The notes: generated by a model from the sequence alone, not told the origin. Counted from the first letter of the stretch, positions 3,334 through 64,000 are shown. The stretch is 64,000 nt of DNA from an uncultured Planctomycetales bacterium (GCA_964545575.1 CAZJFL010000001.1:69878-133877); one strand, 5' to 3'. Numbers and translations: made by a program.

Positions 3334-3345
3334 TGCCTAAATAAG

Positions 3346-3856: not shown

Positions 3857-3993
<137 letters not shown>

Positions 3994-4003
3994 CAGATAT
4001 GAA

Positions 4004-5005
4004 TTAGACTTTTGAATTCTTATAAGACCTAAATCTCTCTATATGTTTACTATTATGACTACCGATTATTTGCATATATTTGTTAACTTCTTTTCTATCA
4101 TAAATGAAAATATGCCTTCCTCCGGCAGTTTTGCAATTTAAACTAAACCTCAGAAACATTTTATACGCCGAATTCAAAAGAGCTTTTGAATGACTCGTAA
4201 AACACAAACCCATATGCCTGTATTTAATTCCCTTGGTAGTGTGATTATGGAAATAAATACCTCCATCGGTATCCATTAAGCCCCTCAGGCAACTTTTTAC
4301 AAACTCGTTATCCTTAAAAATCCATTGCGGCACATCTGTGCCATTTAACATCTTGTTCCCTTTCTTCATACCGCAATTTATCAGAAAAAGAACGAGGTTT
4401 TTACTCGATACTGTAACAACAATGGTATTTTTATCCCTGACTGTGACAGTAGAGGTTATCTTAAATAAATCAGTGACAATTTTTTTGATGAAATAGGCAT
4501 AATCCCTGTCAGTTTTATTATTATAGATTCTGACTTGATGTTCATTTATTGAGCCATCGCCTAAAAGAATCCCAATAAATTCTGCTAACAAAGAAGATCT
4601 TCGAGGATAAATAATATTTTTCCTTAACTTAAAACCTACCTTTTTAGCGAATTCCGGGTCATTCCGAAATTTCAAAGCAGAGACCATACCCCCTTTTCTT
4701 CTGCCTTCTACTGTACCAAGACGCCCGTATAATTCATTCCGCCTTAAAGCCCCCAACCTTGCCGCGCTCTTAATATTCCAATCATCCGGGAGAACTTCTA
4801 TTCTTGGAACAGAAATTCTTAGTTTCTTCTTTAATGATTGAAGAGAAACGTAATTCATTTGATATTTATCCCTTCGCCAGTCAAATAAAGTTCGCTTATC
4901 CACCTTGCAAATTCCGGCTAAATTATGCCAATCAAGATTATTTTCTTTCTTAATCTTCCCCAGAAAACTTCTCTGTTTATTTTCTAGAAATTTTACTCTT
5001 GGCAT
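4004..5005 (-). CDS. Double-motif LAGLIDADG homing endonuclease, free-standing
   Basis: Two LAGLIDADG motifs (LAEFIGILLGDGSI and LRGLMDTDGGIYF) about 100 aa apart, plus an N-terminal basic HTH-like region. The true start is MPRVKF (ATG at 5003-5005). The track ORF 4004..5191 is artificially extended by reading through tRNA-Ser(CGA) and the 59-bp repeat. Confidence 0.75.
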   Translation of the reverse strand: MPRVKFLENKQRSFLGKIKKENNLDWHNLAGICKVDKRTLFDWRRDKYQMNYVSLQSLKKKLRISVPRIEVLPDDWNIKSAARLGALRRNELYGRLGTVEGRRKGGMVSALKFRNDPEFAKKVGFKLRKNIIYPRRSSLLAEFIGILLGDGSINEHQVRIYNNKTDRDYAYFIKKIVTDLFKITSTVTVRDKNTIVVTVSSKNLVLFLINCGMKKGNKMLNGTDVPQWIFKDNEFVKSCLRGLMDTDGGIYFHNHTTKGIKYRHMGLCFTSHSKALLNSAYKMFLRFSLNCKTAGGRHIFIYDRKEVNKYMQIIGSHNSKHIERFRSYKNSKV

Positions 5006-5048
5006 AATATAATTCCAACCGCTCTGCCACCTCTCCAAGAATTTTATT

Positions 5049-5107
5049 GTATGGCGGCGCCGAAGCCAGAGGCTTCGGCATCCGCCATGTTTTTCAAGAG
5101 AAAAACA
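5049..5107 (-). repeat. 59-bp perfect direct repeat, copy 2
   Basis: Identical to 3857-3915 and positioned immediately 3' of tRNA-Ser(CGA). Confidence 0.85.
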
Positions 5108-5196
5108 TGGCGGAGAGTGGAGGATTTGAACCTCCGTACCTCTTACGAGGTAACGCGCTTTCGAGGCGCGCGCTTTCAACCACTCAGCCAACTCTC
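5107..5196 (-). tRNA. tRNA-Ser(CGA), class II
   Basis: GGAGAGTTGGCTGAGTGGTTGAAAGCGCGCGCCTCGAAAGCGCG-[variable arm]-GGAGGTTCAAATCCTCCACTCTCCGCCA, with anticodon loop CUCGAAA. CCA is encoded. Confidence 0.85.
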
Positions 5197-5381: not shown

Positions 5382-6461
5382 TCACCCTCCGGGTTCGGGT
5401 CCTGTTTTTACATAGGTTCTTTTGCCAAATGAATTACTACGGCCATCAAGACAAGTTCCGCAAACCGGTAAGCTTTTTCTATCCGCATGTATTTTTCTTC
5501 TAAGATTTTGGTATTTTCCATTTCTCCAGATATCCCGTAAATCGTCTCGGAAAATATTTCCCATTATATGAAAAGATGCTAGATCGCTACAGCAAGGAGT
5601 TACATCGCCGTTAGAATTGATGACCGTGTAATACTCGATAGAACTACAGGAATTCGGTACTGCGACCTCGTTTACAAAAAGTCCGTCTTTTTCAACGTAG
5701 TTTCTATTAAACGAGGTATCGCGGGGAAAAATCTCTTTTGCTACTTTCTGAAAGTCAGAGCCATCAAAACCGATACCGACCGCTTTTTCCCTATATACAT
5801 CAGCATGCAGTTTTCCGGACATCTCTAACATCATTTGGCGTTGATGTTCGTTATGTTTCATGACAATAAATTGTAATTCGACTATCGGCTTTCTAGATTT
5901 CAGCTCTTTTTTTGCTTGATAGATTAATTCAAATCCTTTTATAACTGCGCTAAAATCAGCTCCTTTTCGGTATTTGTTATAGGTTTCGTGATCCGCGCCA
6001 TCAAGGCAGATAATTAAGTAATATAGGCCGCTTTTAACAACATATTTACAATATTCGATATCCTTAAAAAAAGTACCGTTCGTACATATGCGGATTCTAA
6101 TTCCAGATTCAGTGGCGTATCTAACCATTTGTAGAATATCTTTATGAAGGAAAGGTTCGCCAAGATTCCATAAATCTATATGGGCAATATAAGATCTAAC
6201 TTCATCAACGATTTTTTTAAATTCCTGCAGGCTCATTGATCTTGCTAGCCGATTTAATTTATTCGTACCTGTGGGGCATGCGATACAGCGGAGGTTACAA
6301 AGATTTGTCGGCTCTATAACAAGATAAAAAGGCAGAGGGGAAAATAGCGACTTTCCCGTTAATCCTTTTAATAATTTATATAAAATAATGTCAAAACGTC
6401 TTTTCTTGATTATTAAACAAAGCGCTTCTATTTTTTCAGTGAGGTATTTCATGAAATTCAT
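5382..6461 (-). CDS. Radical SAM protein with C-terminal SPASM/twitch domain
   Basis: CNLRCIACP (CxxxCxxC) in the N-terminal part and a Cys-rich C-terminal region (TPCCSDLASFH...CGTCLDG). A 47-codon continuation in the +1 frame immediately after the stop suggests a possible frameshift or a small downstream ORF. Confidence 0.8.
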   Translation of the reverse strand: MNFMKYLTEKIEALCLIIKKRRFDIILYKLLKGLTGKSLFSPLPFYLVIEPTNLCNLRCIACPTGTNKLNRLARSMSLQEFKKIVDEVRSYIAHIDLWNLGEPFLHKDILQMVRYATESGIRIRICTNGTFFKDIEYCKYVVKSGLYYLIICLDGADHETYNKYRKGADFSAVIKGFELIYQAKKELKSRKPIVELQFIVMKHNEHQRQMMLEMSGKLHADVYREKAVGIGFDGSDFQKVAKEIFPRDTSFNRNYVEKDGLFVNEVAVPNSCSSIEYYTVINSNGDVTPCCSDLASFHIMGNIFRDDLRDIWRNGKYQNLRRKIHADRKSLPVCGTCLDGRSNSFGKRTYVKTGPEPGG

Positions 6462-6589: not shown

Positions 6590-6646
6590 TGGTGCTAGCA
6601 CCACGCTCGCTATTTTGCTTGTTGCAAAATTACGCTCGCTTTGGTG
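6590..6646 (-). ncRNA. Candidate structured RNA element, copy B, next to tRNA-Ser(TGA)
   Basis: GGTGC...CGCTCGCT-[hairpin ATTTTGC/GCAAAAT]-CGCTCGCT-TTGGTGCC. It has the same architecture as 2623-2686, with covarying stems. Confidence 0.4.
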
Positions 6647-6681
6647 CCGAAAATTTTTTCTTTATCAGAAAAAATTTTCGG
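6647..6681 (-). terminator. AT-rich perfect hairpin abutting the tRNA-Ser(TGA) 3' end
   Basis: CCGAAAATTTTTTC-tttatcag-AAAAAATTTTCGG. Confidence 0.4.
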
Positions 6682-6765
6682 AGGCGGAAGGATTCGAACC
6701 CTCGATGGGCGTAAACCCACAACGGTTTTCAAGACCGCCGCATTCAACCGCTCTGCCACGCCTCC
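6679..6765 (-). tRNA. tRNA-Ser(TGA), class II
   Basis: GGAGGCGTGGCAGAGCGGTTGAATGCGGCGGTCTTGAAAACCGT-[variable arm]-GAGGGTTCGAATCCTTCCGCCTCCG, with anticodon loop CUUGAAA. Confidence 0.85.
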
Positions 6766-8752: not shown

Positions 8753-10213
8753 CTATCCCTTAATAACGCACAATGGCCGCATACGACAGACGCGTTTGGA
8801 GATTCCTGCGCGATGCACCACATCTACTACGTCGTTAACATCCTTGTAGGCCTGGGGTGCTTCTTCTACGAGTGTTCCTCTACCTGAGGCCTTAACCATT
8901 ATACCCTTGGATTCCAATTCTTTCAATAAGGTAGCTTCATTTATCGACCTGCTTGCGGCGGTGCGGGATTTTAACCTGCCTGCGCCATGGCAGGTCGAAC
9001 CGAAAGTTTCTTCCATGGCTTTTTGGGTACCCACTAAGAGATAAGAATTTCTCCCCATATCTCCGGGTATAATCACCGGCTGGCCTATTTTTTTATACCT
9101 TTCAGGCAACGCCGGATGCCCCGGGCCAAAAGCGCGGGTGGCGCCTTTACGGTGGACGCAGAGCATTTTTTCTTTTCCTTCAATAGTATATTTTTCGATC
9201 TTGGCGATATTGTGCGCGACGTCGTAAATCAAGAACATCCCTAATTTCTGCCAAGAGATAGCGAATATTTTTTCAAAAACCTTACGGGTAAGATGCATTA
9301 AACACTGCCGGTTTGCCCAGGCATAGTTTGCCGCGCACTTCATCGCTCCCAGATACGCCTTACCTTCGGCAGAATTAACCGGTGCGCAGGCCAGCTGCCT
9401 GTCCGGGACATTGATCTGGTATTTCTCGAGGCAATGTACCATATCTCTGGTATAGTCCTCGCAAATCTGATAGCCCAATCCCCGTGAGCCGGAATGAATC
9501 ATCAGCGTAATCTGCCCAAGATTTAAACCTAATTCATCAGTTATATCCCTATCGTATAATTGATCGATGGCCTGCACTTCCAGGAAGTGATTCCCTGAAC
9601 CTAAGGTGCCGGACTGGGCCTTACCTCTTTCGTAAGCCCGCTGGGAGACCGTATCCGGATCAGCCCCCTGGATGGCGCCGTTCTCTTCAGTGCATTCCAG
9701 GTCATCTTCCGTGCCGTAGCCTTTTTCTACCGCCCACTTTGAACCTTTAAGTAAAATCTCCTTTTCTTCTCTGGCGCTTACCCTGATATCGCCTTTAGAG
9801 CCAACTCCTGCAGGAATATCATTAAATAAAGCGTAAACCAGGTCTTTTATTTTATCTTTTATATCTTCAAATTGAAGGTTGGTTTTAAGCATGCGCACGC
9901 CGCAATTTATGTCAAAACCGACCCCTCCGGGAGAAATTACGCCTCCGTTTTCGATATCGGTCGCCGCCACCCCTCCAATGGGAAAACCATAGCCCCAGTG
10001 GATATCGGGCATAGCCATTGATGCATTTACTATGCCGGGCAAAAACGCCACGTTAGCTACCTGCTCCGCTGCCTTATCCTGCCTGATATCTTTCAATAAT
10101 TTTTCATCGGCATAGATAATCCCGGGCACGCGCATCCCCCTTTTATAGCTTTTAGGTATCCGCCAGCGGAAATCGTCAATTTTCTCTAAAGGTACGGCCG
10201 GGTTTTCAGACAT
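8753..10213 (-). CDS. rtcB: RNA-splicing ligase RtcB (3'-phosphate/5'-OH RNA ligase)
   Basis: 486 aa matching the RtcB signature regions (MPDIHWGYGFPIGG, GFDINCGVRML, SGSRGLG, HNIAK, HRKGATRA). Confidence 0.95.
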   Translation of the reverse strand: MSENPAVPLEKIDDFRWRIPKSYKRGMRVPGIIYADEKLLKDIRQDKAAEQVANVAFLPGIVNASMAMPDIHWGYGFPIGGVAATDIENGGVISPGGVGFDINCGVRMLKTNLQFEDIKDKIKDLVYALFNDIPAGVGSKGDIRVSAREEKEILLKGSKWAVEKGYGTEDDLECTEENGAIQGADPDTVSQRAYERGKAQSGTLGSGNHFLEVQAIDQLYDRDITDELGLNLGQITLMIHSGSRGLGYQICEDYTRDMVHCLEKYQINVPDRQLACAPVNSAEGKAYLGAMKCAANYAWANRQCLMHLTRKVFEKIFAISWQKLGMFLIYDVAHNIAKIEKYTIEGKEKMLCVHRKGATRAFGPGHPALPERYKKIGQPVIIPGDMGRNSYLLVGTQKAMEETFGSTCHGAGRLKSRTAASRSINEATLLKELESKGIMVKASGRGTLVEEAPQAYKDVNDVVDVVHRAGISKRVCRMRPLCVIKG

Positions 10214-22918: not shown

Positions 22919-24001
22919 TTAAGCTATTATCCTGTCAATGATTCCTCCGCCTATCGCCGTATCCCGGGAATAGAATACCGCGGATTGGCCCGGAGTAACC
23001 GCAAACTGCGGTTTTTTAAAGTTGACCTTTATTTTTCCTCTGCAAGGCATCAGTTCTGCTTGCGCTTCCCTGTGATTATATCGTATTCTCACCCTAAGGA
23101 CAACTTTCTTTTTTGGGGGGCAAGCGGTAAAATGCACCTTCTTTACCAGAAACCGGCGCGCAAATACGTCTTCTTTTTTACCCAGGATTATCTGGATTTT
23201 ACGGGGATCGATTCGCAAGACATATAGGGGATACCCCATAGCCACGCCTAAACCTTGGCGCTGGCCGATAGTATAAAATGCAACCCCTTTATGCTCGCCT
23301 AAAACATTACCCTGCCTATCGGTAATTAAACCCGGCTTTATTTTGCCGATGCGCCCTTTTAAGAACTTCCGATAACCTGTTTCCGGTAAAAAGCAGATCT
23401 CCTGGCTGGCTACTTTATCCGCTACCGGCAGAGCAAAGTCTCTAGCCAGGCGGCGCACCTGGTCTTTGGTATAATCTCCCAAAGGAAAAAGAATATGCCT
23501 AAGCTGATGCTGATTTAGGCGGTATAAGAAATACGACTGATCTTTATTTTTGTCTTTGGCTTTCTTCAGTAAATATCTCTGAACTCTGAACCCTGAACCC
23601 TGAACTTTAACCACGCGCGCATAATGTCCGGTAGCAAGATACTGCGCACCTAACGATAGAGCCTTCTTTAATAAAATATCAAACTTGAGAAACTGATTGC
23701 ATCTGACGCAAGGATTAGGAGTCCTGCCGCTGGCATATTCCCGGCAAAAATCTTTAATTACTTTCTCTTCCAGGGATTTCTGCATATTTATTACATAGTG
23801 TTTAATTCCTAACTTGTGCGCTACTCGCCTGGCATCCTCTATACCCTGTATGCCGCAGCAGCGCGGTTTTTTGCTGGCAACATCAGGCAGATTAAAACAC
23901 ATGGTGATACCGATAACCTCATAGCCGCGTTTTTTTAACAAGGCGGCGGCTACCGAGGAATCGACCCCCCCGCTCATCGCGACAACTACCCGTTTTTTCA
24001 T
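22919..24001 (-). CDS. mnmA: tRNA 2-thiouridine(34) synthase
   Basis: PP-loop VVVAMSGGVDSS, catalytic Cys and the KDQSYFLY motif. It contains a 4x heptamer repeat at 23578-23605. Confidence 0.9.
   Translation of the reverse strand: MKKRVVVAMSGGVDSSVAAALLKKRGYEVIGITMCFNLPDVASKKPRCCGIQGIEDARRVAHKLGIKHYVINMQKSLEEKVIKDFCREYASGRTPNPCVRCNQFLKFDILLKKALSLGAQYLATGHYARVVKVQGSGFRVQRYLLKKAKDKNKDQSYFLYRLNQHQLRHILFPLGDYTKDQVRRLARDFALPVADKVASQEICFLPETGYRKFLKGRIGKIKPGLITDRQGNVLGEHKGVAFYTIGQRQGLGVAMGYPLYVLRIDPRKIQIILGKKEDVFARRFLVKKVHFTACPPKKKVVLRVRIRYNHREAQAELMPCRGKIKVNFKKPQFAVTPGQSAVFYSRDTAIGGGIIDRIIA
23578..23605. repeat. Heptanucleotide tandem repeat (YCTGAAC)x4 inside mnmA
   Basis: tctgaac tctgaac cctgaac cctgaac, encoding VQGSGFRVQ. 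Confidence 0.8.
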
Positions 24002-49891: not shown

Positions 49892-51052
49892 TTATTCGAA
49901 CTTAATTTCGTCCAGATAGAAGGTTGCGCCTTCCGGATTCACGTCGATGTTGGTCGCCCAGCAGAAACCGCCGATGATAAAAGACATATCTTTGCCCATC
50001 AGGTCAATGGTATACTGGGTCCAATCCTTATTCAGGATGACCGGGCCGATACCCGCGGTATCGGAATCGGAAAACTCACCCATAATCCCGCCTACCCTAA
50101 ACTCCTCTATCCTTTCGCCGCCTTTTTCTCCCCGCGCCCAAAAGGTGAGCTTGGTGGCTTTGGATAAATCATAACCGGCATCAACCATGCCCCAGTTATT
50201 CGGCGGATTCTGCCATTGTACGCCTGCCCAGCGCGCACCCTGAGAAGCTTTACCGGTGTAAACCATCTTAATACAGGTATCCCCTAAATAAGGGTCTTGT
50301 TTACATGCGCCGTCATATTTTATGTCGCCGTAATCGCCCATCCATCCGGAGGGGATGAAATGATTGCTGACTGAGCTTCTGTCGGCATAAATATAAAAGG
50401 GTACGTTCTCTTTCTTCTTTCCCTCCGGCTTCATATTAGGGTCGGCCTCGTACTTAATGTCATCGATGTAAAAAGTTACTCCGTCAGGATTCAAATCCGC
50501 GGTAGTCGCCCAACCGAACCCGCCGCTGATATAGGATAAATCTTTCCCGGCTAGATTTACGGTGTATTCCTTCCAGGTATCGGTTAATTCTACCGGGCCC
50601 ATCTCGATGGCCGCCGAATCCGGATACGCGCCTTTGATCCCGCCGATGACGAACTTCTGAATCACCTCGCCGCCTTTTTCTCCCCGCGCCCAAAAGGTGA
50701 GCTTTGTCATACCGGAAAGATCAAATCCGCCTTTTTTAGAACCCCAGTTATTCGGCGGGTTCTGCCATTGTACGCCTGCCCAGCCTTCGCCTCTTCCTGT
50801 TTTCTTAGCCGAATAAACAAATTGAATGGAACTGGAACCTGTATGAGGATTACTAAGAGACTGGTCATTTATCTTAATATCTCCGTAATCACCCATCCAT
50901 CCCGAAGGAGCATAGTGATTTTCCCTTGCGCCCTTGTCTTTGTAGACGATGAATTCCTTCGAGCTTTCCGCAACGGGCTTGGCTTCTTCTGCCCCTGCGC
51001 AAACAGGCAGAAATAACATCGCTACTGCCATTACTGCTAATAATTTCTTCAT
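49892..51052 (-). CDS. Secreted protein with two tandem about 180-aa beta-rich (CBM-like) domains
   Basis: The true start is MKKLLAVMAVAMLF (good SD). It has two repeats sharing GWAGVQWQNPPNNWG and SGWMGDYGDIK. Confidence 0.5.
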   Translation of the reverse strand: MKKLLAVMAVAMLFLPVCAGAEEAKPVAESSKEFIVYKDKGARENHYAPSGWMGDYGDIKINDQSLSNPHTGSSSIQFVYSAKKTGRGEGWAGVQWQNPPNNWGSKKGGFDLSGMTKLTFWARGEKGGEVIQKFVIGGIKGAYPDSAAIEMGPVELTDTWKEYTVNLAGKDLSYISGGFGWATTADLNPDGVTFYIDDIKYEADPNMKPEGKKKENVPFYIYADRSSVSNHFIPSGWMGDYGDIKYDGACKQDPYLGDTCIKMVYTGKASQGARWAGVQWQNPPNNWGMVDAGYDLSKATKLTFWARGEKGGERIEEFRVGGIMGEFSDSDTAGIGPVILNKDWTQYTIDLMGKDMSFIIGGFCWATNIDVNPEGATFYLDEIKFE

Positions 51053-51156
51053 CTCTAACACCTCCCCTTTCGTTTGCTTATCACTTATCGCACTATATGC
51101 CATATGCAGATTTCCTATTTTTATTTTGTATTTTTGATGCGCCTCCTTTCCCCTCC

Positions 51157-53442
51157 CTATTGACTCCATAATTTCTTATAGGTGTAATATGATTTACGTA
51201 GCTGCCTTAAATACGGACTCAACTTTCCGTCTCCCTGCCCGGCAATCCCGAGCCACTCCTCATGCATATAACCGTCGGGGAACGGGCCGGTGAATAAACC
51301 TTTGGTGTCGTGCCGGGAAGGCTCATAGGCCTTCCACCACTCATCCAGCCATTCAAAGATCACCCCGCCGATAGAATTGCCTTCGCCGCTGCCAAAGGCA
51401 GTATTGCTTTCTATATCCTCCCAGGCTCCGCTGTGGTAGGCTGCCTGAAGAACTTCCGCCTCATCAGGAGTCTTACCTTGCGCATAGGAGGGGCAGCCAA
51501 ACTCGGTGATGAACACTGGCTTATCCGCCTCCTGTTTTACCTGCCGCCACAAGAAACCGAAACCGTAATCACCGCGGTAAGCATTGGTGCCGAAAATATC
51601 AATGTCGGGCGCATCTTTGCCGAACTTATCCAGAAATAAAGTATCACCGCTACAGATAGCCACGGGGTGACCGGGGTCTATTGCCTTAATCTGCCTAGCC
51701 ACTTCATTGGCAAACTTAAAAAACGCGTCCGGATCGGTATTGGCATTACAGGCAAAACCGTAAACATTTTCATTACCCAGCAGCCAGAAAAGGATATACG
51801 GCTCGTCCTTAAACTCTAAAACCATATTGATCACCGATTCCATCATCTTCTTTTTCTGCTCTTCGTTGGTGTAATCCGTGCCCGGGTACCATTTAGCGCC
51901 GGAGCCGATAGCATATTTGCCCAGGAAATCCCCCATAATCACCCTTATGCCGTAAGTCTTATATAAATCGCGCAGCAACTCTTTGTTTGGCCAGTTATAA
52001 TCGGGGCGATGGTACATCCGTATAGTATTGACACCCATCTCTTTCATTAATGCAAAATCCCCTACTGCCGGCTCATCCGGATCTTGAAGGTTATTTTTAT
52101 TTTTATCTACGAACGAATCATAAGGCGCATCGATTTTGCCGTTTTTATTATCATCCTCAAGCTGCCAATTTTTCATTGTCCCTTCGTCGGGAGATTGGCC
52201 CACTTTCGTCGGGGAATAAGTAATGCCTTTAATAATATAGGGCTTGCCATCCGCTATCAGCTGCCAGTCGCCGGTTTCATACTGCACCAAATGCACTTTC
52301 CCCGTGCCTAAATATTTATTTACGCTTAATTCCGCCGGCGAGGATTTGGATTTCAAGTTTTCCAAGAGGCCGGACTTTTGGAACCTTCCGGGGTTAGTTA
52401 CGGCGGTATCGTTGGAGACGTTATTATCGTAGCCGTTAATAATTTTAATATCCGCATCTACTAATTTATATCCTAAATTAGGGTTGCGGCGCAGGAGAAA
52501 GTTGATCTTGGCGATCGCTGCCTGTCCGATATACCAGGGCGTATGCCAGTAAGTCCAGCTGTAGGCGCCGGGAAAATGCACCACAATAGCATAATAGCAT
52601 TTGATGGCATGTTTAATCAGCCCGGACTTTTCCAGAATCAGGCCGGTATAAAATAATTTTACTCCCTGCGGCTCGGGGGCAATGGCCCATTTTAAAAATG
52701 CCGCCTCCAAATCCGGGGAATGCAGGAAATCCCAAAGGCTCCCCTCCAGCCTTTTCGCCTCTTTGGCTTTTTTGAATTCCGGGTCCCATCTAATGGAGGT
52801 GCTATTAGGATAGACGCCTTCGCCGACTGCCGCGCTTAAACCCTCCTGATCGCTGACTACATAGCGGTAATCCTTGGTGCCGATATTCTTAAACTCGCCG
52901 TATTGCTCGTAATCTACGAAATCTTCTTTACCCGGATCGTAAAGGACTATTCTTGTCGGTAGCTGGCTGATCTTTGCCTTTTTTTCTATCTCAATGGAGC
53001 CGGTCTCTATTTTTTTCACGCTCTGCTTTGCGGTTTCGGCAAGCTGCCAGTACCAGCCGCGCTGGTCCCAGGCCTGGGCGTAATAATATTTTTCGATTAT
53101 CAATTTAAAGATCTTCTTCGCTTCCTCCGGTTTTTCCTGGCGCATATAGCTTTCGGCCTGGATAAAATATGCGGTAGCTACGTTATTTAAGTCCTGGACA
53201 TTCTCGATCGCTTCCTTATTCTTGGGAAGTTCTTTTAAAGAAGCCTGTTCTTTGTCCGCCTCATTCTTGTATAAATCAATGCACGCTTTAGTATATTTAA
53301 AAACCGCCTCAATGTCGCGCCTGCCGTGCGCCTCCCAGGCCTTGACGATCAAATCGCCGGAGGAAGGCTTATCCTGGCATATCGCATATCGCATATCGCA
53401 TATCGCAAAAAATAATGCTAAAATAATCAAGGTGCGTTTCAT
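51157..53442 (-). CDS. Secreted multidomain glycoside hydrolase (N-terminal TPR-like region plus clan GH-A TIM barrel)
   Basis: Signal peptide, LLGNENVYGF (acid/base) and FITEFGC (nucleophile). The N-terminus contains an (ATATCGC)x4 heptamer array. Confidence 0.6.
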   Translation of the reverse strand: MKRTLIILALFFAICDMRYAICQDKPSSGDLIVKAWEAHGRRDIEAVFKYTKACIDLYKNEADKEQASLKELPKNKEAIENVQDLNNVATAYFIQAESYMRQEKPEEAKKIFKLIIEKYYYAQAWDQRGWYWQLAETAKQSVKKIETGSIEIEKKAKISQLPTRIVLYDPGKEDFVDYEQYGEFKNIGTKDYRYVVSDQEGLSAAVGEGVYPNSTSIRWDPEFKKAKEAKRLEGSLWDFLHSPDLEAAFLKWAIAPEPQGVKLFYTGLILEKSGLIKHAIKCYYAIVVHFPGAYSWTYWHTPWYIGQAAIAKINFLLRRNPNLGYKLVDADIKIINGYDNNVSNDTAVTNPGRFQKSGLLENLKSKSSPAELSVNKYLGTGKVHLVQYETGDWQLIADGKPYIIKGITYSPTKVGQSPDEGTMKNWQLEDDNKNGKIDAPYDSFVDKNKNNLQDPDEPAVGDFALMKEMGVNTIRMYHRPDYNWPNKELLRDLYKTYGIRVIMGDFLGKYAIGSGAKWYPGTDYTNEEQKKKMMESVINMVLEFKDEPYILFWLLGNENVYGFACNANTDPDAFFKFANEVARQIKAIDPGHPVAICSGDTLFLDKFGKDAPDIDIFGTNAYRGDYGFGFLWRQVKQEADKPVFITEFGCPSYAQGKTPDEAEVLQAAYHSGAWEDIESNTAFGSGEGNSIGGVIFEWLDEWWKAYEPSRHDTKGLFTGPFPDGYMHEEWLGIAGQGDGKLSPYLRQLRKSYYTYKKLWSQ
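53378..53406. repeat. Heptanucleotide tandem repeat (GCATATC)x4 in the signal-peptide codons of the GH gene
   Basis: gcatatcgcatatcgcatatcgcatatcgca, encoding AICDMRYAI. Confidence 0.85.
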
Positions 53443-53789
53443 TTTAAACCCTTCTTAAATGCCCTTATTTTCCTTATGATTTTCTCTGCCTCTTCATACA
53501 ATTCTTTTTGTTTTAACTCGGTAATATATTTCCTTAACAGGGCAAAATATAGAATATTTACTGTTTCTAAAGCCGACTTTATGCTTGTATCAAGGAAACA
53601 GCTAAAATCTCTAGTAGTACTTGCTCCTGAACCCTCAGCAATATTATTCGAAATAGAAACTGCTGCTCTTCTTAATTGAGAACATAATCCATACATTTCT
53701 TTTTGTGGAAAAGAATCGGCTATCTCGTATAATTTACTTGCGTATTCCAAAGACAATTTCCAAATCTCTAAACTTTCAAATCTAAACAT
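53439..53789 (-). CDS. Four-helix-bundle protein (23S rRNA intervening-sequence protein / Avd-like family)
   Basis: 116 aa with FESLEIWKLSLEYASKLYEIADSFPQKEMYGLCSQLRRAAVSISNNIAEGSG, the TIGR02436-type signature. Confidence 0.8.
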   Translation of the reverse strand: MFRFESLEIWKLSLEYASKLYEIADSFPQKEMYGLCSQLRRAAVSISNNIAEGSGASTTRDFSCFLDTSIKSALETVNILYFALLRKYITELKQKELYEEAEKIIRKIRAFKKGLK

Positions 53790-53798
53790 TCGAATTAC

Positions 53799-53904
53799 GA
53801 TAAGCGATTAGCGATAAGCGATAAGCCCTTTTCGCATATCGCATATGGCATATCGCATGTCGTCTTTAAGATTTTACGATAAGCGATTAGCGATAAGCGA
53901 TAAG
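53799..53904. repeat. Composite heptamer array: (GATAAGC)x4 - (GCATATC)x4 - (GATAAGC)x4
   Basis: Two identical 28-bp GATAAGC/GATTAGC arrays flank a GCATATC array. The GCATATC unit is the same one found at 53378-53406. Confidence 0.85.
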
Positions 53905-53910
53905 CTAATA

Positions 53911-54759
53911 TCATCCTGCTATCGCTCCGGCTGTTACTCCCTTGACAATATACTTCTGCATCAAAAGATAAATTATAATTATCGGCAACGCAGTTATGGT
54001 TAAGCCGGCCATCAAAAGCGGGTAATTAGTGACGAACTCGCCCTGGAAAGACTTAAGAGCGACCTGAAGGGGCATGAGCTTACGCGAATCAAAGATAATC
54101 AAAGCCAGGATATATTCGTTCCAGATATTGAGCGCGTTGAACACGACCACGACCGCCAAGACCGGTTTTGCCAGCGGCAGCGCAATGTGCCACCAGAGCC
54201 CGATCTTGGAGCAACCGTCAATACGGGCGGTATCCTCGAGTTCCTGGGGCATCTTATCAAAGAATGTCTTAAGGAGGTAGATACTAGTGGAAAGCCCGAC
54301 ACTAATCATGCATAGAATATAGCCGACCGGGGTATTGCGTAGATGCAACTTATTCAAAAGTACGTAAAGGGCGACAAAACTGCCAGGAATGGGGATCATC
54401 ATCGCCGCCATAAAAATATAAAAGAGAAGATTCCTACCGGGGAACTTAAGGCGCGAAAAAGCATAAGCCGCCAGAGACGAAACGATGACTATGCCCAAAA
54501 CCACCGTCACCGTATAGAAAATGCTGTTTAAGAAATACCTGCCAAAACCGCCTTCTTTCCAGGCTAAATAATAATTCTCAAAGTGGAACTCATGGGGGAA
54601 AACCGACATGTCTTTAAAAATAGTTTCCTGGGTTTTGAGGCTGGAGGAAACCATCCAGAATAAAGGAAATAGGCAGGTGATTGCCACGAGAATAAGAAAT
54701 AAATGGATGAGCATATTCAGGGTTACTCTTTTAGTTTTATAATAAATTACTGATTTCAT
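53911..54759 (-). CDS. ABC sugar transporter permease (MalG-like)
   Basis: EAA loop region (DGCSKIGLWWHIALPLAKP). Confidence 0.85.
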   Translation of the reverse strand: MKSVIYYKTKRVTLNMLIHLFLILVAITCLFPLFWMVSSSLKTQETIFKDMSVFPHEFHFENYYLAWKEGGFGRYFLNSIFYTVTVVLGIVIVSSLAAYAFSRLKFPGRNLLFYIFMAAMMIPIPGSFVALYVLLNKLHLRNTPVGYILCMISVGLSTSIYLLKTFFDKMPQELEDTARIDGCSKIGLWWHIALPLAKPVLAVVVVFNALNIWNEYILALIIFDSRKLMPLQVALKSFQGEFVTNYPLLMAGLTITALPIIIIYLLMQKYIVKGVTAGAIAG

Positions 54760-57149: not shown

Positions 57150-58487
57150 TTACTCCTTTCTTATTGACATCTGTTTCCGCTTGCGCGCCAATTCCCGCTC
57201 TTTAACCGCTTGAGTTTCGGCCGCTACCTGAACAGGCGTTTTCTCACCCAAGATGATCGACTGGATCCCCTTACTCCAAGTCTCGATCACCATTGAAAAC
57301 TCCGATACGTCCCAGGCATTAGGATGGGTCACGTAATCCATTCCTCGAGCGAACAGCGCATTGATCTTGAGGCTGCTTGCCGCGCTCTGCTTGTTCGCCG
57401 GCAGGTTGTTAGTAGCACTAGACAGATAGGACTGCTGTTCCTCATCGCTAAACCAGCGCAAGAATTTTACCGCCTCTTCTTTAAATTTTCCGCGGGCATT
57501 GACCATAAAAGACGAGCCAGCCCCGCCCCAGATACTCATCGGATAGACTTCGGACGCCTTTGGCGGCAGCATGGCCGCGTAATTCAACTGCGGGTTCATC
57601 CCTTTATACACGTTCACGCACCAAGAACCATTAAAAGCAAAGACTGCCTTACCATTGGCAAATAACTGCTCGGCGGTCTTATTGATCATCGTCACGACAC
57701 CGTTGGCTAAAACTCCCGCATCCTGCATTTCTTTAAAAAGGTTCAAAACCTTTATCCAGTCCGGGTCGGTATAAGGCACCTCGCCCCTGATCGTGGCTAA
57801 AACTTTGTCTTTACCCATAATATTAAAGGCGTAATTATTCGCAAGGCAATCTATCATCCAGGCTTCGCCCCACCCGGAAACCAAGCCCTGCTTATGGGCG
57901 GCTTTGATTTTTTTGCCTATTTCTAAAAACTCCTGAAAAGTTTGCGGCGGGCGGTCAGGGTCAAGCCCTAATTCCTTAAATAAATCCTTATTATAAAGCA
58001 TCTGGATAGTCATCACATCGATGGGCACGCCGTAAATTCCCGGCTTGACGCCATAGGTATTGCTGTCGGCGAATTCATTGACTGCCAGGGCTTTGCTGAA
58101 AAGCTCGTTTTTCCATTCACCCTGCGCTTCTTCCATATAGGGCGTTAAATCTAAAATATGGCCGGCTTTCACAAAAGAAGCGAAATCCCGTTTTTCGCCT
58201 AATATGCCAAAAATATCCGGCAGGTTTTCGCCTTGCGCCGCAGCGCGCACTTTCTGGGAATAGACATCTGAAGGCGCGTAGAGCTCAAAATTAACTTTTA
58301 TTGCGGTTTGGGCTTCATATTTTTTGGCCAGCTCCTGAAAGGCCGGGTCTCTGTCGGTCATCCAGTGCCAGACTGTAAGGGTGGCGGCTTTAGTCTGCGG
58401 TTTAGGGGCACAGCCAGAGACAATGAACAATGAACAATGAACAATGAACAATAACGAAAACATGAAAGCTATTTTACGGCTGGGCAT
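57150..58487 (-). CDS. ABC transporter extracellular solute-binding protein (family 1), lipoprotein
   Basis: The signal peptide with a lipobox (VSGC) is encoded partly by a (CAATGAA)x4 heptamer array. A mature SBP fold follows. Confidence 0.8.
   Translation of the reverse strand: MPSRKIAFMFSLLFIVHCSLFIVSGCAPKPQTKAATLTVWHWMTDRDPAFQELAKKYEAQTAIKVNFELYAPSDVYSQKVRAAAQGENLPDIFGILGEKRDFASFVKAGHILDLTPYMEEAQGEWKNELFSKALAVNEFADSNTYGVKPGIYGVPIDVMTIQMLYNKDLFKELGLDPDRPPQTFQEFLEIGKKIKAAHKQGLVSGWGEAWMIDCLANNYAFNIMGKDKVLATIRGEVPYTDPDWIKVLNLFKEMQDAGVLANGVVTMINKTAEQLFANGKAVFAFNGSWCVNVYKGMNPQLNYAAMLPPKASEVYPMSIWGGAGSSFMVNARGKFKEEAVKFLRWFSDEEQQSYLSSATNNLPANKQSAASSLKINALFARGMDYVTHPNAWDVSEFSMVIETWSKGIQSIILGEKTPVQVAAETQAVKERELARKRKQMSIRKE
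58414..58447. repeat. Heptanucleotide tandem repeat (CAATGAA)x4.5 in SBP signal-peptide codons
   Basis: caatgaacaatgaacaatgaacaatgaacaataa, encoding FIVHCSLFIVHCSLFIV. Confidence 0.85.
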
Positions 58488-59340: not shown

Positions 59341-62300
59341 TTATCTGCCATATGTAAATCCCGCAATCTCTATTAATATTTGGCGCAAAATCCCTTCCCA
59401 AGGAATTAATGCAGCTACTCTAAATGGATTTTTTCCTTTATGCAAAGCGTCTTCTAGATTCCGTATAAAATTTTCCCTTTTTTGCGAATCGTCGATTCTT
59501 TCCCTTGCCACGCCTTTTATAATCCTTAAATACCGCTTCTTTTTCTGGGAGTTATAAGTTAGCCAATCGCTGATGATTCTTAATCCTATGCCCCATAGTT
59601 CCTCCCGGTATTTATGAATACTATCCGGATTTTCTCTTATCTCGGCAATAATTTTTTCTAATTTCTTATGTTGTAATTTTATAATGACCCCCGAAGCCAA
59701 TGCCCGCAGCTCATGATTAGTATGCCCTAAATAATAACTATTGAGTATATGGGAAAGGTAAGAAATATCGTCTACCTCATCAACGATTCCCGCTAAAATA
59801 TCGATTATTACCATATCTTTCTTAAATTTTTCAAAATCTACCGGCCGCAGAAAGCTTTCTAACTTACTGATAATATTTTTATCCGCCTTTCTTTGTACTA
59901 ACACCTTCTTTGCTTCCTGCCAAAGCGCCTCATTAGATCTGCTAAATGCCTCTTCCACATAGCGCAGATAATCTCCCGCTGTAAACAATAATCCTACTGT
60001 ATCACTTTCGATCTGATAAAAGAGGGGATGTAGCTGACATAATTTCTTATGCATTCTTCTTAAAGCAAGGCTGATCAGGGGTATCGTCTTATCTTGCTGC
60101 TGAGTTGTGAAAGAAGATATCTGCTTCATCATCTCTTCAATAATTCTTATCGCCTCTGTAATATTGGTTGTGATCACGGATATATTTCTGCCTTGGCCTA
60201 GATATATCTGGGGCCCTGCCTGTTTTCTTATCTCTTTAATCTTCTCTGATAATCTCTTTATTGCGATGAGGAATTCGTTCCTTTCCTCTTCATCCAACAT
60301 ATTTACTTTCTTTAACATGTTCCTTATTGAAGACTCTAAAATAATCTGTAATTTTCTTCTTGCCGAATTGCATTCGGTAATTATTTTTTTACCTAAGTCA
60401 GAGCTTTTTAAAGGCTGCTCAGCGGCAGCAAGCTCTAATAATTCAAGAAAACAATTTATCATTTCCGAAGTATGGAATAGCCTTAATGGGTGTTTTGCTA
60501 TTCTTGCCTTTAGCATGCGCGCCACAAAAACCCCTATTCTTCTTTCTTCATAATGTAATAAACCTAAACTTTTTCCGTAACCCCTTAAGCGCAGAAAACT
60601 GCCTACATAGTCAGCTAATTCTACCCGTTCCATCCCCCGTAAGATCTCTAATCCTTTCTGTGCCAGTCCAGCCATTCGGTCTGCGATAATGCCCAATTCT
60701 TCTTTAAGTCTTACCAGTGCCCGTGTTTTATGTTTTCTCTGATAACTCTTCAAAAGGGCTCTTAGGGAATGGCCGCCGAAGAACTCTATTTTTTCATCAA
60801 AATCCAGTATGGTTAAGGCGAAAGAATTTTTGCCTAACGCCTCAGTCAAGCATTCCAAAAACTTTTTCTTTACTGCCGCAGGTACTTCTGCCCATGATCT
60901 CATTTCGTCTCTTCGTACCCGCCCCAGCCAGAAGTTAAAATTATCCTCGGAAAATTTAAAGCCCAATTGCTTTTTTAACCGACTCAGGCCGTCGTTTTGG
61001 GTATCGTGTCTTTTTTGATAAGTCTCTAAAAGACGGATCAATGTTTTCCCGAGGCGGGGGATTTTTATCTTAAAATCTTTTAAAATTAGATCTTCCGGTT
61101 TCTTACCTACCTCTTCGGCTAACAGTTCCACGCAGAATATCTTTACGATGTCGGGAATCCTATCCCAAACAGTTCTTTCAGTCCTTATGTAGTATGCCCA
61201 AGCATCGAGATCCATTTCTTGGGTGAAGGTTTCGGGAAAAACTGAATGTAATAATGCCGGAAAAGAATAATCGAACAGCCGCCAAATCCCCAAAAGCCCT
61301 TCTTTCTCCAGCATCGCTCTGTTTACCTCCCTTAAAAGCGATTCTCTGTTTGTAATATCTAAATGCAGATGCTCAACGGCAACGTGCAATAACGCGGTCT
61401 TTGCTAATTCTTTATCCCAGCCTATGACGCGCGGCCCAAAATAACTAATGAACTCCCAAATATGCAGGTGCCCGCCTTCATCGGTTTTTAAATTAAATAG
61501 CCAGTAGTAATGTTCTTTCAGCATTTTATACAGCCCGCCCTTAAACGATAAAAGCATGCCGCTTAAATTCTGCTGCTGGAATAATTCCTCCCAGCCGCCT
61601 TTTTCTATGCCTTCTCTTTTAAATAGCTCTTGGAATTTTTGCGGATGCAGTAAGTCGCTAAAAGTATTCTTGGCCGGATCGTCAGGGTCGATGTTAATCA
61701 ATTTCAGATGCTTTTCAAAGAAATGCCTGACCGCCTTTTCTATCATCTGTTCATCCTGCCATATCCCTTTCTGCAAAATAAAATCCCAAGGATGCAGGTG
61801 CCCGCCCTCCGCTGTTTCCAAATCAAACGCCCATGGATAACAGGCGCGAAACGCTCCATAGAAACTCCCCCTGAATAAATTTCCCAACACGTCTCTGCCG
61901 ATTTCTTTTCTCAGAAGCTTTGACCAATCGCTGCTCTTAAGCTGTCCGGAAAACCGCTTCTGCGCCTCCCCTGTCATAAATTGGGAATTTCTGCCTTTTG
62001 CTAATTTAACTATATATTCGGGAAATAAGCGTAGGCCTATCTGTCTTAATCTTGCATCCATTTTTAAACCAAGGTGTCTTTCAAAGATATGCCTGAGATT
62101 TTTGATGGTTTTTTCTTCTTTTTCCTCGCTTTCTTTCAGGCGCACAAAATCTAAATAATGCAGGTGGAAGCCTTCCTTGGTGCTATAATCGAATGCCCAC
62201 GGATAGACCATTTCTACTGCCTCGGCGAAACTAAGGCGGTTTACCTTACCGTCGCTACGCCGCTCTCTGAATGCTAGCTTAAATTTAGCTAAAAGCTCAT

Positions 62301-64000
62301 CCAGATGCGCCACACCGGACCTGCGGCAAAGTAAATAGTGGTTTTGGTAAAAAAGGCGCCTATCTATCTTTTCACCCTGCTTCATCTCCAATTTCAGTTT
62401 TTCTTCAAAGAAATATTTTAACAATATAAGCCGATTTATCTTTCCTGCTTTGCCTACCAAGGTATTCATGGGAAACTTGGGGTTTTTGCTACGCAGCATT
62501 GTTTCATAATACTGACGAAGGGCAGGCCCGGCACATCTTATATACTCATCTGTCAATTTCTGTCTTTCTGCATCAGATTTACAAATACTCAATAAATATT
62601 CCAGCTCGGGGATTACTTCAAATAGATTACGGCCTCTGCCGCGCCAATGGACTATCTGCTTTTCCTTTTCTCTATCGATATATCGACGGTAAAATGGGCG
62701 GTACTCTGCCCCTACAAAAGTTTCCTTTATTTTTCTCTTTCCGAAAAACCTCATCACTAAATAAAATTCTATTTCATAAATATAAAAATAAACCCCGGCA
62801 GCGGTCAATAACCTGTCCCGGAAACCTTCATTTTTTAGGTAGCCAGCGATCTCCTTAGCCTGATATTTTCTGCTTAAAGCAACATCGAGAAACGGATCAA
62901 TGCCGTAATAAAGCCTGAACGCTATCATTTTTACAAATAACTCCGCATATTCTGTGGGGTTATCTTTCTTCATCTCTAACAACTCTTCCAATGCATCTAA
63001 AACCGATGCGGCATCTATGGAAAGCTCTTGCTTATTCCTTATCTGGAGGGACCCGATAAAATCTTCCCGTATCTTTTTTCGGCTGTTGCTTACCACTGAA
63101 TCCGTAACCAGCAGAAAACCAGCTAAAGCCAACTCACTTCCCGGGGGCCGCGGATGATGAAAGACAAATAATACTAAACTGAAGATAACCCAAACCGCCA
63201 GAATTACGATTAATAATCCAATCTGGGTGAAGCCTTTTGGCCCTTTCTTTAACTGTAATTTTGCGATTATCTCTAAAGCTAATTTCCTGATATCGGCATT
63301 CATATGCCCGATATAATATCTATTTAAGACATCTTTTAGTTTGGCGATATCTTGGGCATCGCTGCAAATCTCTGTCAGAATTTCAATAATCGCCATATCT
63401 TTAACGACGTATCTTTCTTCAAAAAACCCGGGGTCAAGTATGTGCATTAAACGCAGGATTAACTTCCTGTCCCCTTTTCTTAGCTTCAGTTCATTTTTAG
63501 CTGCTTCTATCAGTTTAATATTTCCCTGGCGTATAATCGAAAAGGGATCAAGACCGGCAAAACCCAATTTTACCTTAAGGTTATTTAACGCCTGCTTTAA
63601 ATTTTCATTCTTACCACGGTAACGCTGCAAAAGTCCAATCAAGCTCTGGTTTAAAGATAGTATCTGAGTTTTAAAATCCTCCGGATTTAAGCCCTCGGGT
63701 TTTTTCTTTAACTGCGTAGTTAACAATTCCACGCACCGGCGCTGCACAGAAAGAGGCACCTTGCTCCAGACAATATGCCGGCACCTCTTTAACTGCGGAA
63801 ACCAAACCGCCCAGTCCGCCTGGGAAAATAATTCATCGAATACGAAATTTAATAAAGCCGACGCAGAACAATCAAAGATTTCCCAGAGCTTAAAGACGCC
63901 TTCCTCTTTTAAGACCTCCCGGGTCATCCCTTCGGATAACGATTCTACGCTAAGCTCTAATTTCCGGTGTTTAAGCGCAATGTGCTTTACCGCCTCTTTT
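59341..64000 (-). CDS. Giant uncharacterised protein, more than 1550 aa and N-terminally truncated by the window end, with internal duplications
   Basis: The open frame continues without a stop to position 64000. It has one predicted TM helix and three roughly 110-aa repeats sharing YPWxFDxxTxEGGHLHxW(D/E)F. The N- and C-terminal regions are also homologous to each other. No family recognised. Confidence 0.6.
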   Translation of the reverse strand, partial: KEAVKHIALKHRKLELSVESLSEGMTREVLKEEGVFKLWEIFDCSASALLNFVFDELFSQADWAVWFPQLKRCRHIVWSKVPLSVQRRCVELLTTQLKKKPEGLNPEDFKTQILSLNQSLIGLLQRYRGKNENLKQALNNLKVKLGFAGLDPFSIIRQGNIKLIEAAKNELKLRKGDRKLILRLMHILDPGFFEERYVVKDMAIIEILTEICSDAQDIAKLKDVLNRYYIGHMNADIRKLALEIIAKLQLKKGPKGFTQIGLLIVILAVWVIFSLVLFVFHHPRPPGSELALAGFLLVTDSVVSNSRKKIREDFIGSLQIRNKQELSIDAASVLDALEELLEMKKDNPTEYAELFVKMIAFRLYYGIDPFLDVALSRKYQAKEIAGYLKNEGFRDRLLTAAGVYFYIYEIEFYLVMRFFGKRKIKETFVGAEYRPFYRRYIDREKEKQIVHWRGRGRNLFEVIPELEYLLSICKSDAERQKLTDEYIRCAGPALRQYYETMLRSKNPKFPMNTLVGKAGKINRLILLKYFFEEKLKLEMKQGEKIDRRLFYQNHYLLCRRSGVAHLDELLAKFKLAFRERRSDGKVNRLSFAEAVEMVYPWAFDYSTKEGFHLHYLDFVRLKESEEKEEKTIKNLRHIFERHLGLKMDARLRQIGLRLFPEYIVKLAKGRNSQFMTGEAQKRFSGQLKSSDWSKLLRKEIGRDVLGNLFRGSFYGAFRACYPWAFDLETAEGGHLHPWDFILQKGIWQDEQMIEKAVRHFFEKHLKLINIDPDDPAKNTFSDLLHPQKFQELFKREGIEKGGWEELFQQQNLSGMLLSFKGGLYKMLKEHYYWLFNLKTDEGGHLHIWEFISYFGPRVIGWDKELAKTALLHVAVEHLHLDITNRESLLREVNRAMLEKEGLLGIWRLFDYSFPALLHSVFPETFTQEMDLDAWAYYIRTERTVWDRIPDIVKIFCVELLAEEVGKKPEDLILKDFKIKIPRLGKTLIRLLETYQKRHDTQNDGLSRLKKQLGFKFSEDNFNFWLGRVRRDEMRSWAEVPAAVKKKFLECLTEALGKNSFALTILDFDEKIEFFGGHSLRALLKSYQRKHKTRALVRLKEELGIIADRMAGLAQKGLEILRGMERVELADYVGSFLRLRGYGKSLGLLHYEERRIGVFVARMLKARIAKHPLRLFHTSEMINCFLELLELAAAEQPLKSSDLGKKIITECNSARRKLQIILESSIRNMLKKVNMLDEEERNEFLIAIKRLSEKIKEIRKQAGPQIYLGQGRNISVITTNITEAIRIIEEMMKQISSFTTQQQDKTIPLISLALRRMHKKLCQLHPLFYQIESDTVGLLFTAGDYLRYVEEAFSRSNEALWQEAKKVLVQRKADKNIISKLESFLRPVDFEKFKKDMVIIDILAGIVDEVDDISYLSHILNSYYLGHTNHELRALASGVIIKLQHKKLEKIIAEIRENPDSIHKYREELWGIGLRIISDWLTYNSQKKKRYLRIIKGVARERIDDSQKRENFIRNLEDALHKGKNPFRVAALIPWEGILRQILIEIAGFTYGR

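Follow-up and report, generated by a model that had tools for sequence, protein, structure and literature searches.

The closest described counterparts of the locus considered here are the intervening sequences (IVSs) in the 23S rRNA genes of Leptospira, Coxiella burnetii, Xanthomonas and Brucella, which carry an open reading frame (ORF) for a four-helix-bundle (4HB) protein, S23p, of the family PF05635. In the IVS of Coxiella burnetii this ORF lies between terminal inverted repeats, which form a 28-bp stem around it; on the 5' side three to four tandem heptamers (GACAGAT) lie just upstream of that ORF's start codon, in a number that depends on the strain, and RNase III cuts at the first of them (PMC4990558). 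A 64,000-nt stretch from an uncultured Planctomycetales bacterium (GCA_964545575.1, CAZJFL010000001.1:69878-133877; this whole stretch is referred to as the window, and positions are counted from its first letter) contains a stand-alone gene of the same family, flanked by arrays of tandem heptamers and set between the genes for an ABC (ATP-binding cassette) sugar-transporter permease and a glycoside hydrolase (GH). With moderate confidence, we interpret this locus as an IVS-type cassette, in which the 4HB ORF lies in the loop of a long, imperfect stem of inverted heptamers, is inserted in a sugar operon, and acts as RNA.

The 4HB gene (53439..53789, minus strand) encodes a protein of 116 amino acids with a pI of 9.1, which belongs to the PF05635/TIGR02436 family of IVS proteins. 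The PF05635 profile (23S_rRNA_IVP) matches with E 1.9e-30 (105.6 bits, against a cut-off of 33.8) and over its full length, residues 5-109 of the protein aligning with positions 1-105 of 106 in the profile; TIGR02436 ('four helix bundle protein') matches with E 1.8e-28 (98.9 bits, against a cut-off of 24). The link to 23S IVS elements drawn in a preliminary description of this DNA therefore holds in respect of the protein family and, as set out below, of the architecture. A sequence search of the PDB identified XCC0516 of Xanthomonas campestris (2GSC, E 3.7e-15) as the nearest solved relative, followed by 2RLD (E 3.4e-4); both are pentameric, with five chains each. The family is a large one, with at least 921 relatives of a single query at E <= 1e-10. 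The gene has the same orientation as the operon, its start codon is not preceded by a Shine-Dalgarno (SD) sequence, and no promoter-like or terminator-like sites were found on the coding strand between 53300 and 54100. An Rfam scan of 53200-54100 gave no rRNA or other significant match, only two chance-level hits (E 0.36 and 0.86).

Four arrays were called around this gene with Tandem Repeats Finder (TRF), all on the minus strand, and the heptamer arrays that had been reported on both of its sides are thereby confirmed. Read along the coding strand, the order is array A1 (53877..53905), 14 nt, array B1 (53832..53862), 5 nt, array A2 (53798..53826), 8 nt, the 4HB gene, an ATGA overlap with the GH gene, a 32-nt spacer, and array B2 (53377..53407). 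A1 and A2 are both (GCTTATC)x4 arrays of 4.1 copies, A1 with one GCTAATC variant; B1 consists of 4.4 GCGATAT-like units and B2 of 4.4 perfect GCGATAT units (100% matches). Together with a TTAC flank, A1 (53874-53905) is an exact copy, at 32/32 positions, of the A2 segment 53795-53826, while B1 (53834-53862) is 93% identical to B2 (53377-53405). The B unit is the reverse complement of the A unit bar one position per heptamer, which becomes a U.U mismatch in RNA; B1 is likewise an imperfect reverse complement of A. Because A and B are near reverse complements of each other, the arrays form inverted pairs and are not direct repeats only. The preliminary description had taken direct copies of a GCATATC unit for the boundaries of a cassette; the functional brackets are instead the inverted A2 and B2 arrays. 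The units are AT-rich and cannot form G-quadruplexes. Throughout the 64 kb, perfect arrays of at least three copies occur at period 7 only, among periods 4 to 15, and of the six period-7 arrays that reach four copies or more, four fall inside this one stretch of 530 nt, a clustering that exceeds chance.

A2 is complementary to B2, and by prediction the pair encloses the entire 4HB ORF, A2 as the 5' and B2 as the 3' arm of the enclosing stem. The predicted A2:B2 duplex (-33.8 kcal/mol) contains 24 bp interrupted by periodic 1x1 mismatches. When a 556-nt sense RNA was folded, the minimum-free-energy and centroid structures alike were predicted to contain an A1:B1 hairpin together with the A2:B2 stem around the entire ORF; the z-score of this fold is -4.66, and 0/100 shuffled sequences folded as well. 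With the upstream part folded by itself, B1 pairs with A2 instead of A1, so alternative pairings are available. A1 and B1 make up a 'solo' hairpin whose loop contains no ORF.

The GH gene is translationally coupled to the 4HB gene. The preliminary claim that the gene overlaps the GH start is borne out: the 4HB stop codon and the GH start codon share 4 nt (ATGA), and the GH ORF (51157..53442, minus strand) begins at the 4HB stop codon and reads the 3' arm as part of its signal peptide. The GH start and the T-rich 32-nt spacer (53408..53442, minus strand) encode MKRTLIILALFF, the n- and h-region of that signal peptide, and B2, which occupies GH codons 12-22, is translated as AICDMRYAIC within it.

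Cassettes at the same permease|GH junction were recovered from five related loci, and these display a common layout with that of the window. (Related loci are designated by L-numbers and the window cassette, where it is compared with them, by WIN.) In all six (the window, L219, L220, L014, L012 and L006) an A array is followed by the 4HB gene, the ATGA overlap, a spacer of 31-32 nt and a B array, with a gap of 4-22 nt between A and the 4HB gene (4-8 nt in four of the six). The A1-B1 pair is missing from the other five; the window alone has it, and it is accordingly regarded as a lineage-specific duplication. In L014 position 7 of the unit is G instead of C in both arms. The A arm of L014 is a poor pairing partner for the B arms of L219 and L220, though not for those of WIN, L012 and L006, and A arms of the WIN type pair poorly with the B arm of L014. 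The A-[4HB]-spacer-B layout is thus conserved across six lineages that have diverged, and changes in one arm are matched in the other. Synonymous divergence among the syntenic 4HB copies of the window, L014 and L006 is near saturation (dS 0.9-1.4) at a dN/dS of only 0.08-0.12. The protein is under strong purifying selection (dN/dS about 0.1), and from the two values together it follows that the insert is old and the 4HB protein functional. For all this divergence the arms have stayed tidy tandem arrays.

The resemblance to the rRNA elements extends to several features besides the protein family. The ORF is enclosed by terminal inverted repeats, with a stem of about 28 bp in the IVSs and a predicted one of 24 bp with mismatches in the window; the 5' arm is built from tandem heptamers and stops shortly before the start codon, A2 having 4.1 copies and lying 8 nt from the ATG; four heptamers amount to 28 nt, which is the arm length here; and the gene has no promoter of its own and is carried on the host transcript. 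There are also clear differences. The host transcript in the window is that of a protein-coding sugar operon (ABC permease/GH) and not helix 25 or 45 of 23S rRNA; the window has an additional ORF-less A1-B1 hairpin upstream; and its 3' arm is translated in the signal peptide of the downstream gene, as a result of which clean excision would destroy the GH mRNA. The locus, on this interpretation an IVS-type 4HB element in an mRNA operon, is unusual in that the start codon and signal peptide of the host gene are read through one of the arms.

Supposing that the cassette, like the IVSs, works as RNA, the following scheme may be proposed. On operon transcripts that are not being translated the A2:B2 stem would form, occluding the SD-less 4HB start codon 8 nt away and presenting a substrate for a double-stranded RNA nuclease (RNase III), as in the rRNA IVSs; a cut by this enzyme would uncouple the transporter part of the mRNA from the GH part. 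Ribosomes that terminate on the 4HB gene and re-initiate on the GH gene would melt the B2 arm, and stem formation and translation would therefore be mutually exclusive. The extra A1-B1 pair could provide alternative states, either A1:B1 with A2:B2, or B1:A2. The arrays themselves would be ordinary heptameric simple-sequence repeats (SSRs), homogenised by slippage or conversion.

To place the locus in a wider setting, one genome per species was scanned with an alignment of close 4HB homologs, which returned 80 loci labelled as Omnitrophota, Patescibacteria, Planctomycetota, Chloroflexota, Actinomycetota, Nitrospirota, Kuenenia and others. Flanking inverted repeats, defined as ungapped complementarity between upstream and downstream sequence with a score >= 14, were present in 37/77 4HB loci compared with 1/231 control segments of the same size (p = 5e-32); an earlier run had given 40/83 loci against 0 for shuffled flanks. 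Period-7 arrays were found in 24/165 flanks (150 nt each) and in 29/2377 control tiles, and there was no enrichment at 4HB flanks for the other periods from 4 to 12. This crude figure (14.5% of flanks versus 1.2% of tiles) overstates the effect, because the arrays favour intergenic DNA. The density of period-7 arrays is 1.04/kb in 4HB flanks, 0.25/kb in other intergenic DNA of the same loci and 0.07/kb in coding sequence (p = 1.5e-5), and a fair estimate of the enrichment, from flanks and intergenic DNA only, is about four-fold. Where both flanks bear arrays the downstream one is mostly the reverse complement of the upstream one (for example AGAGCTT/GCTCTAA in L093 and ATGGCRT/GCCATAR in L069); in composite arrangements at L059 and L090, it is a direct array that lies nearest downstream. 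The heptamer unit varies by lineage. Like the window, L022, L059 and L069 have composite arrangements that include additional A-B hairpins lacking an ORF. The association of 4HB genes with heptamer arrays is thus preferential and spans many phyla, and is of more interest than the locus from which it was recognised.

In 42 of the surveyed loci the 4HB gene has the orientation of both its neighbours, and in 1 that of neither; co-oriented tRNA genes adjoin 20/60 loci (among L016-L030 and L050-L064, each with its 4HB gene at about 3001-3345). The genes often follow one another as tRNA-Pro(tgg), 4HB, tRNA-Arg(tct), and this order, continued by tRNA-His, recurs in several metagenome-assembled genomes labelled Omnitrophota or Planctomycetia. 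Close relatives with 75-80% identity occupy unrelated sites, including rpsR/rplI (L013), the junction of an ABC-ATPase and a TonB-receptor gene, and tRNA clusters. A spacer of about 30-35 nt separates the 4HB stop codon from the array in L013 and L009 too, where it is non-coding. Stand-alone 4HB genes therefore keep the architecture of IVSs outside rRNA, co-oriented on host transcripts and often in tRNA clusters or operons.

The arrays can also be approached from the other side. When metagenomes were scanned for the arrays first, using the pattern (ATCGCWW)x>=3.7, 80 loci were obtained (L099-L178), and a 4HB gene was present within 300 nt in none of them (0/80), although the HMM (hidden Markov model) used was that of the close subfamily and may have missed distant 4HB genes. 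Many of these arrays are followed directly by start codons (in L102 the ORF after the array starts with MSKFAVIETGGKQYKV), inverted pairs are seen in L100, L123 and L125, and (ATCGCAA)n and related arrays are widespread on contigs of 37-66% G+C. In addition, B-type arrays persist at the GH locus in L097 and L098, which have no 4HB gene. The idea that the heptamers are the specific ends of the cassette, which had also been put forward in their description as cassette boundaries, was rejected on these grounds.

What the arrays do belong to is a known class of heptameric SSRs. The class has reportedly been recognised as over-represented in bacteria since the work on STRR (short tandemly repeated repetitive) sequences of 1990. 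Its members, among them the cyanobacterial STRR, GGGAATC in Xanthomonas, GGGGAYT in Nostoc and TAACTGA in Beggiatoaceae, have 7-nt units, in most cases in about four copies (28 nt), as here; they are intergenic or adjacent to start codons and often occur as convergent inverted pairs. Such repeats are over-represented in many bacterial genomes and differ between close relatives, length and sequence varying while the type of site is kept (PMC4692102, PMC4679880). In Xanthomonas the arrays mostly have 4 units, and about 70 are in convergent pairs (PMC4692102). The present arrays differ in that they bracket a 4HB ORF, a connection that the SSR papers do not draw (PMC4692102, PMC4679880), in that their two arms co-vary, and in their four-fold enrichment at 4HB flanks. 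One of the published arrays does adjoin such a gene: in X. campestris ATCC 33913 a 28-nt array of four GGGAATC units lies between accB (bccP) and XCC0516 (PMC4692102 supplement). This array overlaps the annotated start of XCC0516, which encodes the 2GSC protein (XCC0516/XCC0517 region), a point on which the paper is silent (PMC4692102). Apart from the paper on the Coxiella IVS, nothing linking 4HB genes with heptamer repeats was found in the searchable literature.

Membership of this class raises the question whether the arrangement is coincidental, slippage having produced heptamer repeats at intergenic or 5'-end hot spots in one of which the 4HB gene merely happens to be located. Independent SSR hot spots are a plausible origin for the arrays, and much of the array-first survey speaks for coincidence, since 4HB genes were not found near those arrays and many of them stand before start codons or are paired by themselves; so do the published abundance of the class, two unrelated period-7 arrays elsewhere in the window (58420-58452 and 23577-23606), and the other arrays that cassette-less GH orthologs bear at the same 5' end. 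As an explanation of the whole locus it is nevertheless unlikely. It does not account for an array density at 4HB flanks four times that in other intergenic DNA, nor for complementarity of the flanks in nearly half of the loci and in a single control segment, and it is at odds with arms that change together (L014), with a spacer between the 4HB stop codon and the 3' array that is constant at 30-35 nt even where non-coding, and with the pairing of heptamers with a 4HB ORF in the Coxiella IVS and at XCC0516 likewise.

Several results weigh against an IVS-type cassette that works as RNA. Among transition mismatches in the arms, the sense-strand G.U bias looked for was not found (43 versus 41), and this test therefore does not favour RNA pairing over complementarity at the level of DNA; the energy of the sense duplex is below that of the antisense duplex, a difference that the G.U count does not support and of which base composition is one possible cause. 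The 0/80 outcome of the array-first scan and the arrays without a 4HB gene in L097 and L098, in both within the GH signal peptide as in the window, have been described; with a B-type array still in place where the cassette is not, what the arms do, or where they come from, may be independent of the ORF. An RNase III cut in B2 would sever the GH mRNA inside codons 12-22, separating it from its start codon, so that plain IVS-style excision would be costly here, and the periodic U.U mismatches might act as anti-determinants of cleavage. Finally, the S23p ORF of Coxiella appears to be decaying (PMC4990558), unlike the 4HB gene of the window, with its dN/dS of about 0.1.

The history of the permease|GH site was reconstructed from orthologs with and without the cassette. 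The presence of the cassette is patchy, and it is not found in all relatives, as a comparison of the GH locus proposed in the preliminary description brought out. GH orthologs without a 4HB gene include L094 and L095 (88% and 85% identical to that of the window) and L098, whose GH is 92% identical to that of the cassette-bearing L012. Between permease and GH, L098 still has TCTTTAAGAAAGGTTTATCATGA, similar to the codons with which the 4HB gene ends (…AFKKGL*), and this remnant of the 3' end implies that loss there occurred by deletion. In a neighbour-joining tree the 4HB proteins of the GH site fall in one branch, apart from the copies in the rpsR/rplI and TonB contexts (L013, L009), which indicates vertical descent. 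The cassette is therefore old at the GH site and has been lost by deletion in some relatives. Of the earlier proposal of an inserted cassette, one part stands, in that the element is discrete, is dispensable to GH orthologs and occurs at unrelated sites; recency, which the synonymous divergence contradicts, does not.

At the 5' end of the GH gene the heptamer units and copy numbers differ between L012 and L098. In L096 (3751-3900) a complete A-loop-B hairpin is translated as the N-terminus and signal peptide of the GH, SEVRRQKSEVRK…FSVFCFLFSVFCF; L095 (2746-2790) has a period-8 array (CGYTATCT x4) at the position equivalent to the GH 5' array; and in L094 (1281-1400) the GH 5' end, where degenerate CATTTGY heptamers occur, is interrupted by an in-frame TAG at codon 7 after the ATG. 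Among GH orthologs (P0121-P0240) the N-termini are hypervariable and often periodic over 7 residues. Under a strict definition this periodicity is found in 9/120 GH N-termini compared with 0/1142 segments elsewhere in the proteins, which is weaker than the impression gained by eye.

A cassette that is patchily distributed among close relatives and whose subfamily, at 75-80% identity, recurs in unrelated contexts might be mobile as DNA, the arrays being the terminal inverted repeats of a non-autonomous transposon, the 4HB gene a passenger, the transposase encoded elsewhere, and A1-B1 an empty derivative resembling a miniature inverted-repeat transposable element (MITE). The arms do look like such repeats, solo hairpins exist, ATGA is present at both junctions in three of the six GH-site cassettes (the window, L014 and L219), and many close 4HB homologs are located on very short contigs, as repeated elements often are. 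MITEs and the REP/BIME palindromes (repetitive extragenic palindromic sequences and bacterial interspersed mosaic elements) are likewise short inverted-repeat modules in the intergenic regions of operons, and ORF-less copies such as A1-B1 and the L096 hairpin coexist with the ORF-bearing form. We consider this explanation improbable all the same. The putative ATGA duplication is missing in L012, L220 and L006 (permease stop TAA), so that target-site duplications are not consistent, and no near-identical copies were found: the 4HB gene occurs once in the 64-kb window, and copies from different contexts are saturated at synonymous sites (pS 0.76-0.87). Those at the GH site cluster in the tree in the manner of vertical descent, and the sole loss on record came about by internal deletion, part of the gene staying behind, and not by clean excision. 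The arms are tandem heptamers of variable length and unit, not fixed ends, and both properties drift fast, unlike the ends recognised by a transposase; nor was a transposase detected among the window ORFs that were scanned.

The heptamers might alternatively constitute a phase-variable switch, in which slipped-strand mispairing at B2 (GH codons 12-22) and at a second array, TCATTGT x4.7, toggles the production of secreted proteins. The unit length is no multiple of 3, both arrays are perfect and fall within the 5' part of the coding sequence for two secreted proteins belonging to a single operon, copy number and unit vary among related species, and the 5' end of the GH in L094 is interrupted. 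Set against this, five independent metagenome assemblies of this population have identical arrays with no change in copy number (these being consensus sequences only), and four copies are few for efficient slippage; the inverted A arrays, the enclosed gene and the layout in tRNA clusters are left unexplained. We accordingly give the switch little credence. As an observation on the second array, this perfect (TCATTGT)x4.7 repeat (58420-58452, minus strand; ORF 57150-58487) is translated as LLFIVHCSLFIV and forms part of the ABC solute-binding protein's lipoprotein signal peptide, this protein being the product of the first gene of the operon; the ortholog in L012 does not have it.

Because PF05635 also covers Avd, the accessory protein of diversity-generating retroelements (DGRs), the gene had been considered as possibly belonging to such an element. 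Avd of the Bordetella phage (bAvd) is, like the window protein, a small basic four-helix-bundle protein of this Pfam family, and one 4HB homolog, P0054, carries PF22296 besides. That the locus is the remnant or a component of a DGR, with the 4HB protein acting as Avd, is nonetheless very improbable. The window differs from a DGR in that no reverse transcriptase, no pair of template and variable repeats (TR/VR) and no target gene with a C-terminal variable region were found in it. No reverse transcriptase domain was detected among the scanned ORFs (all of those of >=200 aa and the operon genes), in agreement with the preliminary description, and a repeat scan of the whole window yielded no TR/VR-like repeat, which effectively excludes for the window the DGR context suggested there; the PDB sequence hits were 2GSC and 2RLD only, no chain named Avd being among those at E <= 0.01, and the PADLOC defence models gave no match with the 4HB protein.

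The only long imperfect repeat detected in the window was examined as a candidate TR/VR pair and rejected. Segments 50040-50232 and 50592-50784 lie within the same ORF (49892-51169, minus strand), which encodes a secreted protein of 425 amino acids without a Pfam match; a block of 43 nt is 98% identical between them and the adjacent 138 nt 70%. The substitutions are mixed and not adenine-specific, and the repeat is an internal duplication of the protein. Gene conversion, or strong constraint on the motif WAGVQWQNPPNNWG, may lie behind the 43-nt block.

Returning to the association between 4HB genes and heptamers, a bolder generalisation is that 4HB proteins are the trans-acting partners of bacterial heptamer arrays. 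We regard this as quite unlikely. Were it true, a pentameric 4HB protein would recognise or maintain stems and arrays composed of 7-nt units; the 'autonomous' form would be the cassette with its ORF, and the far commoner ORF-less arrays and hairpins, in 5' UTRs (untranslated regions), signal-peptide regions, and tRNA and rRNA operons, would be its non-autonomous targets. A single system would then explain the function of IVS ORFs, the orphan Avd-like genes and the excess of heptamers (STRR, GGGAATC, TAACTGA). Binding of the arrays by the 4HB protein and processing of double-stranded RNA at the arms would be testable leads.

The operon that houses the cassette comprises, in order, genes for a solute-binding protein, an MFS_2 transporter and two ABC permeases, the cassette, the GH gene, two ORFs of 425 amino acids, and a ROK regulator. 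The permease gene immediately upstream of the cassette (53911..54759, minus strand) matches PF00528 (BPD_transp_1, E 9.9e-18), and the order solute-binding protein, MFS_2, permease, permease, cassette, GH is also found in L012, L014, L219 and L220. The GH ORF encodes a protein of 761 amino acids, a TPR and GH2-like TIM-barrel protein that is predicted to be secreted, its N-terminus resembling a signal peptide; the match with Glyco_hydro_2_C has E 5e-10, while that with TPR_6 (22.1 bits) is under the Pfam cut-off of 26.3. Its homologs at E <= 1e-30 number 1355, and the named ones are labelled Omnitrophota/Omnitrophica or unclassified 'bacterium'. Judged by the labels of the nearest homologs, the window probably comes from a member of the Omnitrophota.

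Elsewhere in the window, the period-7 array at 23577-23606 (minus strand, 4.3 copies) lies in the ORF for MnmA, a tRNA 2-thiouridylase (22919-24001), and encodes VQGSGFRVQR in a variable loop that exceeds its counterpart in the closest solved homolog (PDB 9HLN) by 4-5 residues. Between 2718 and 6765 four tRNA-Ser genes are interleaved with ORFs for LAGLIDADG_3 (4004-5191) and radical-SAM/SPASM (5382-6461) proteins. Near-identical repeats that consist of a hairpin plus a tRNA end occur here (3857-3938 and 5059-5140, 93% identical; 2673-2742 and 6633-6702, 80%), and a gene for RtcB lies at 8753-10213. Lastly, an ORF of 1528 amino acids (59341-63927, minus strand), which has no match in Pfam or NCBIfam, contains internal 51-nt repeats at 61447, 61777 and 62143.

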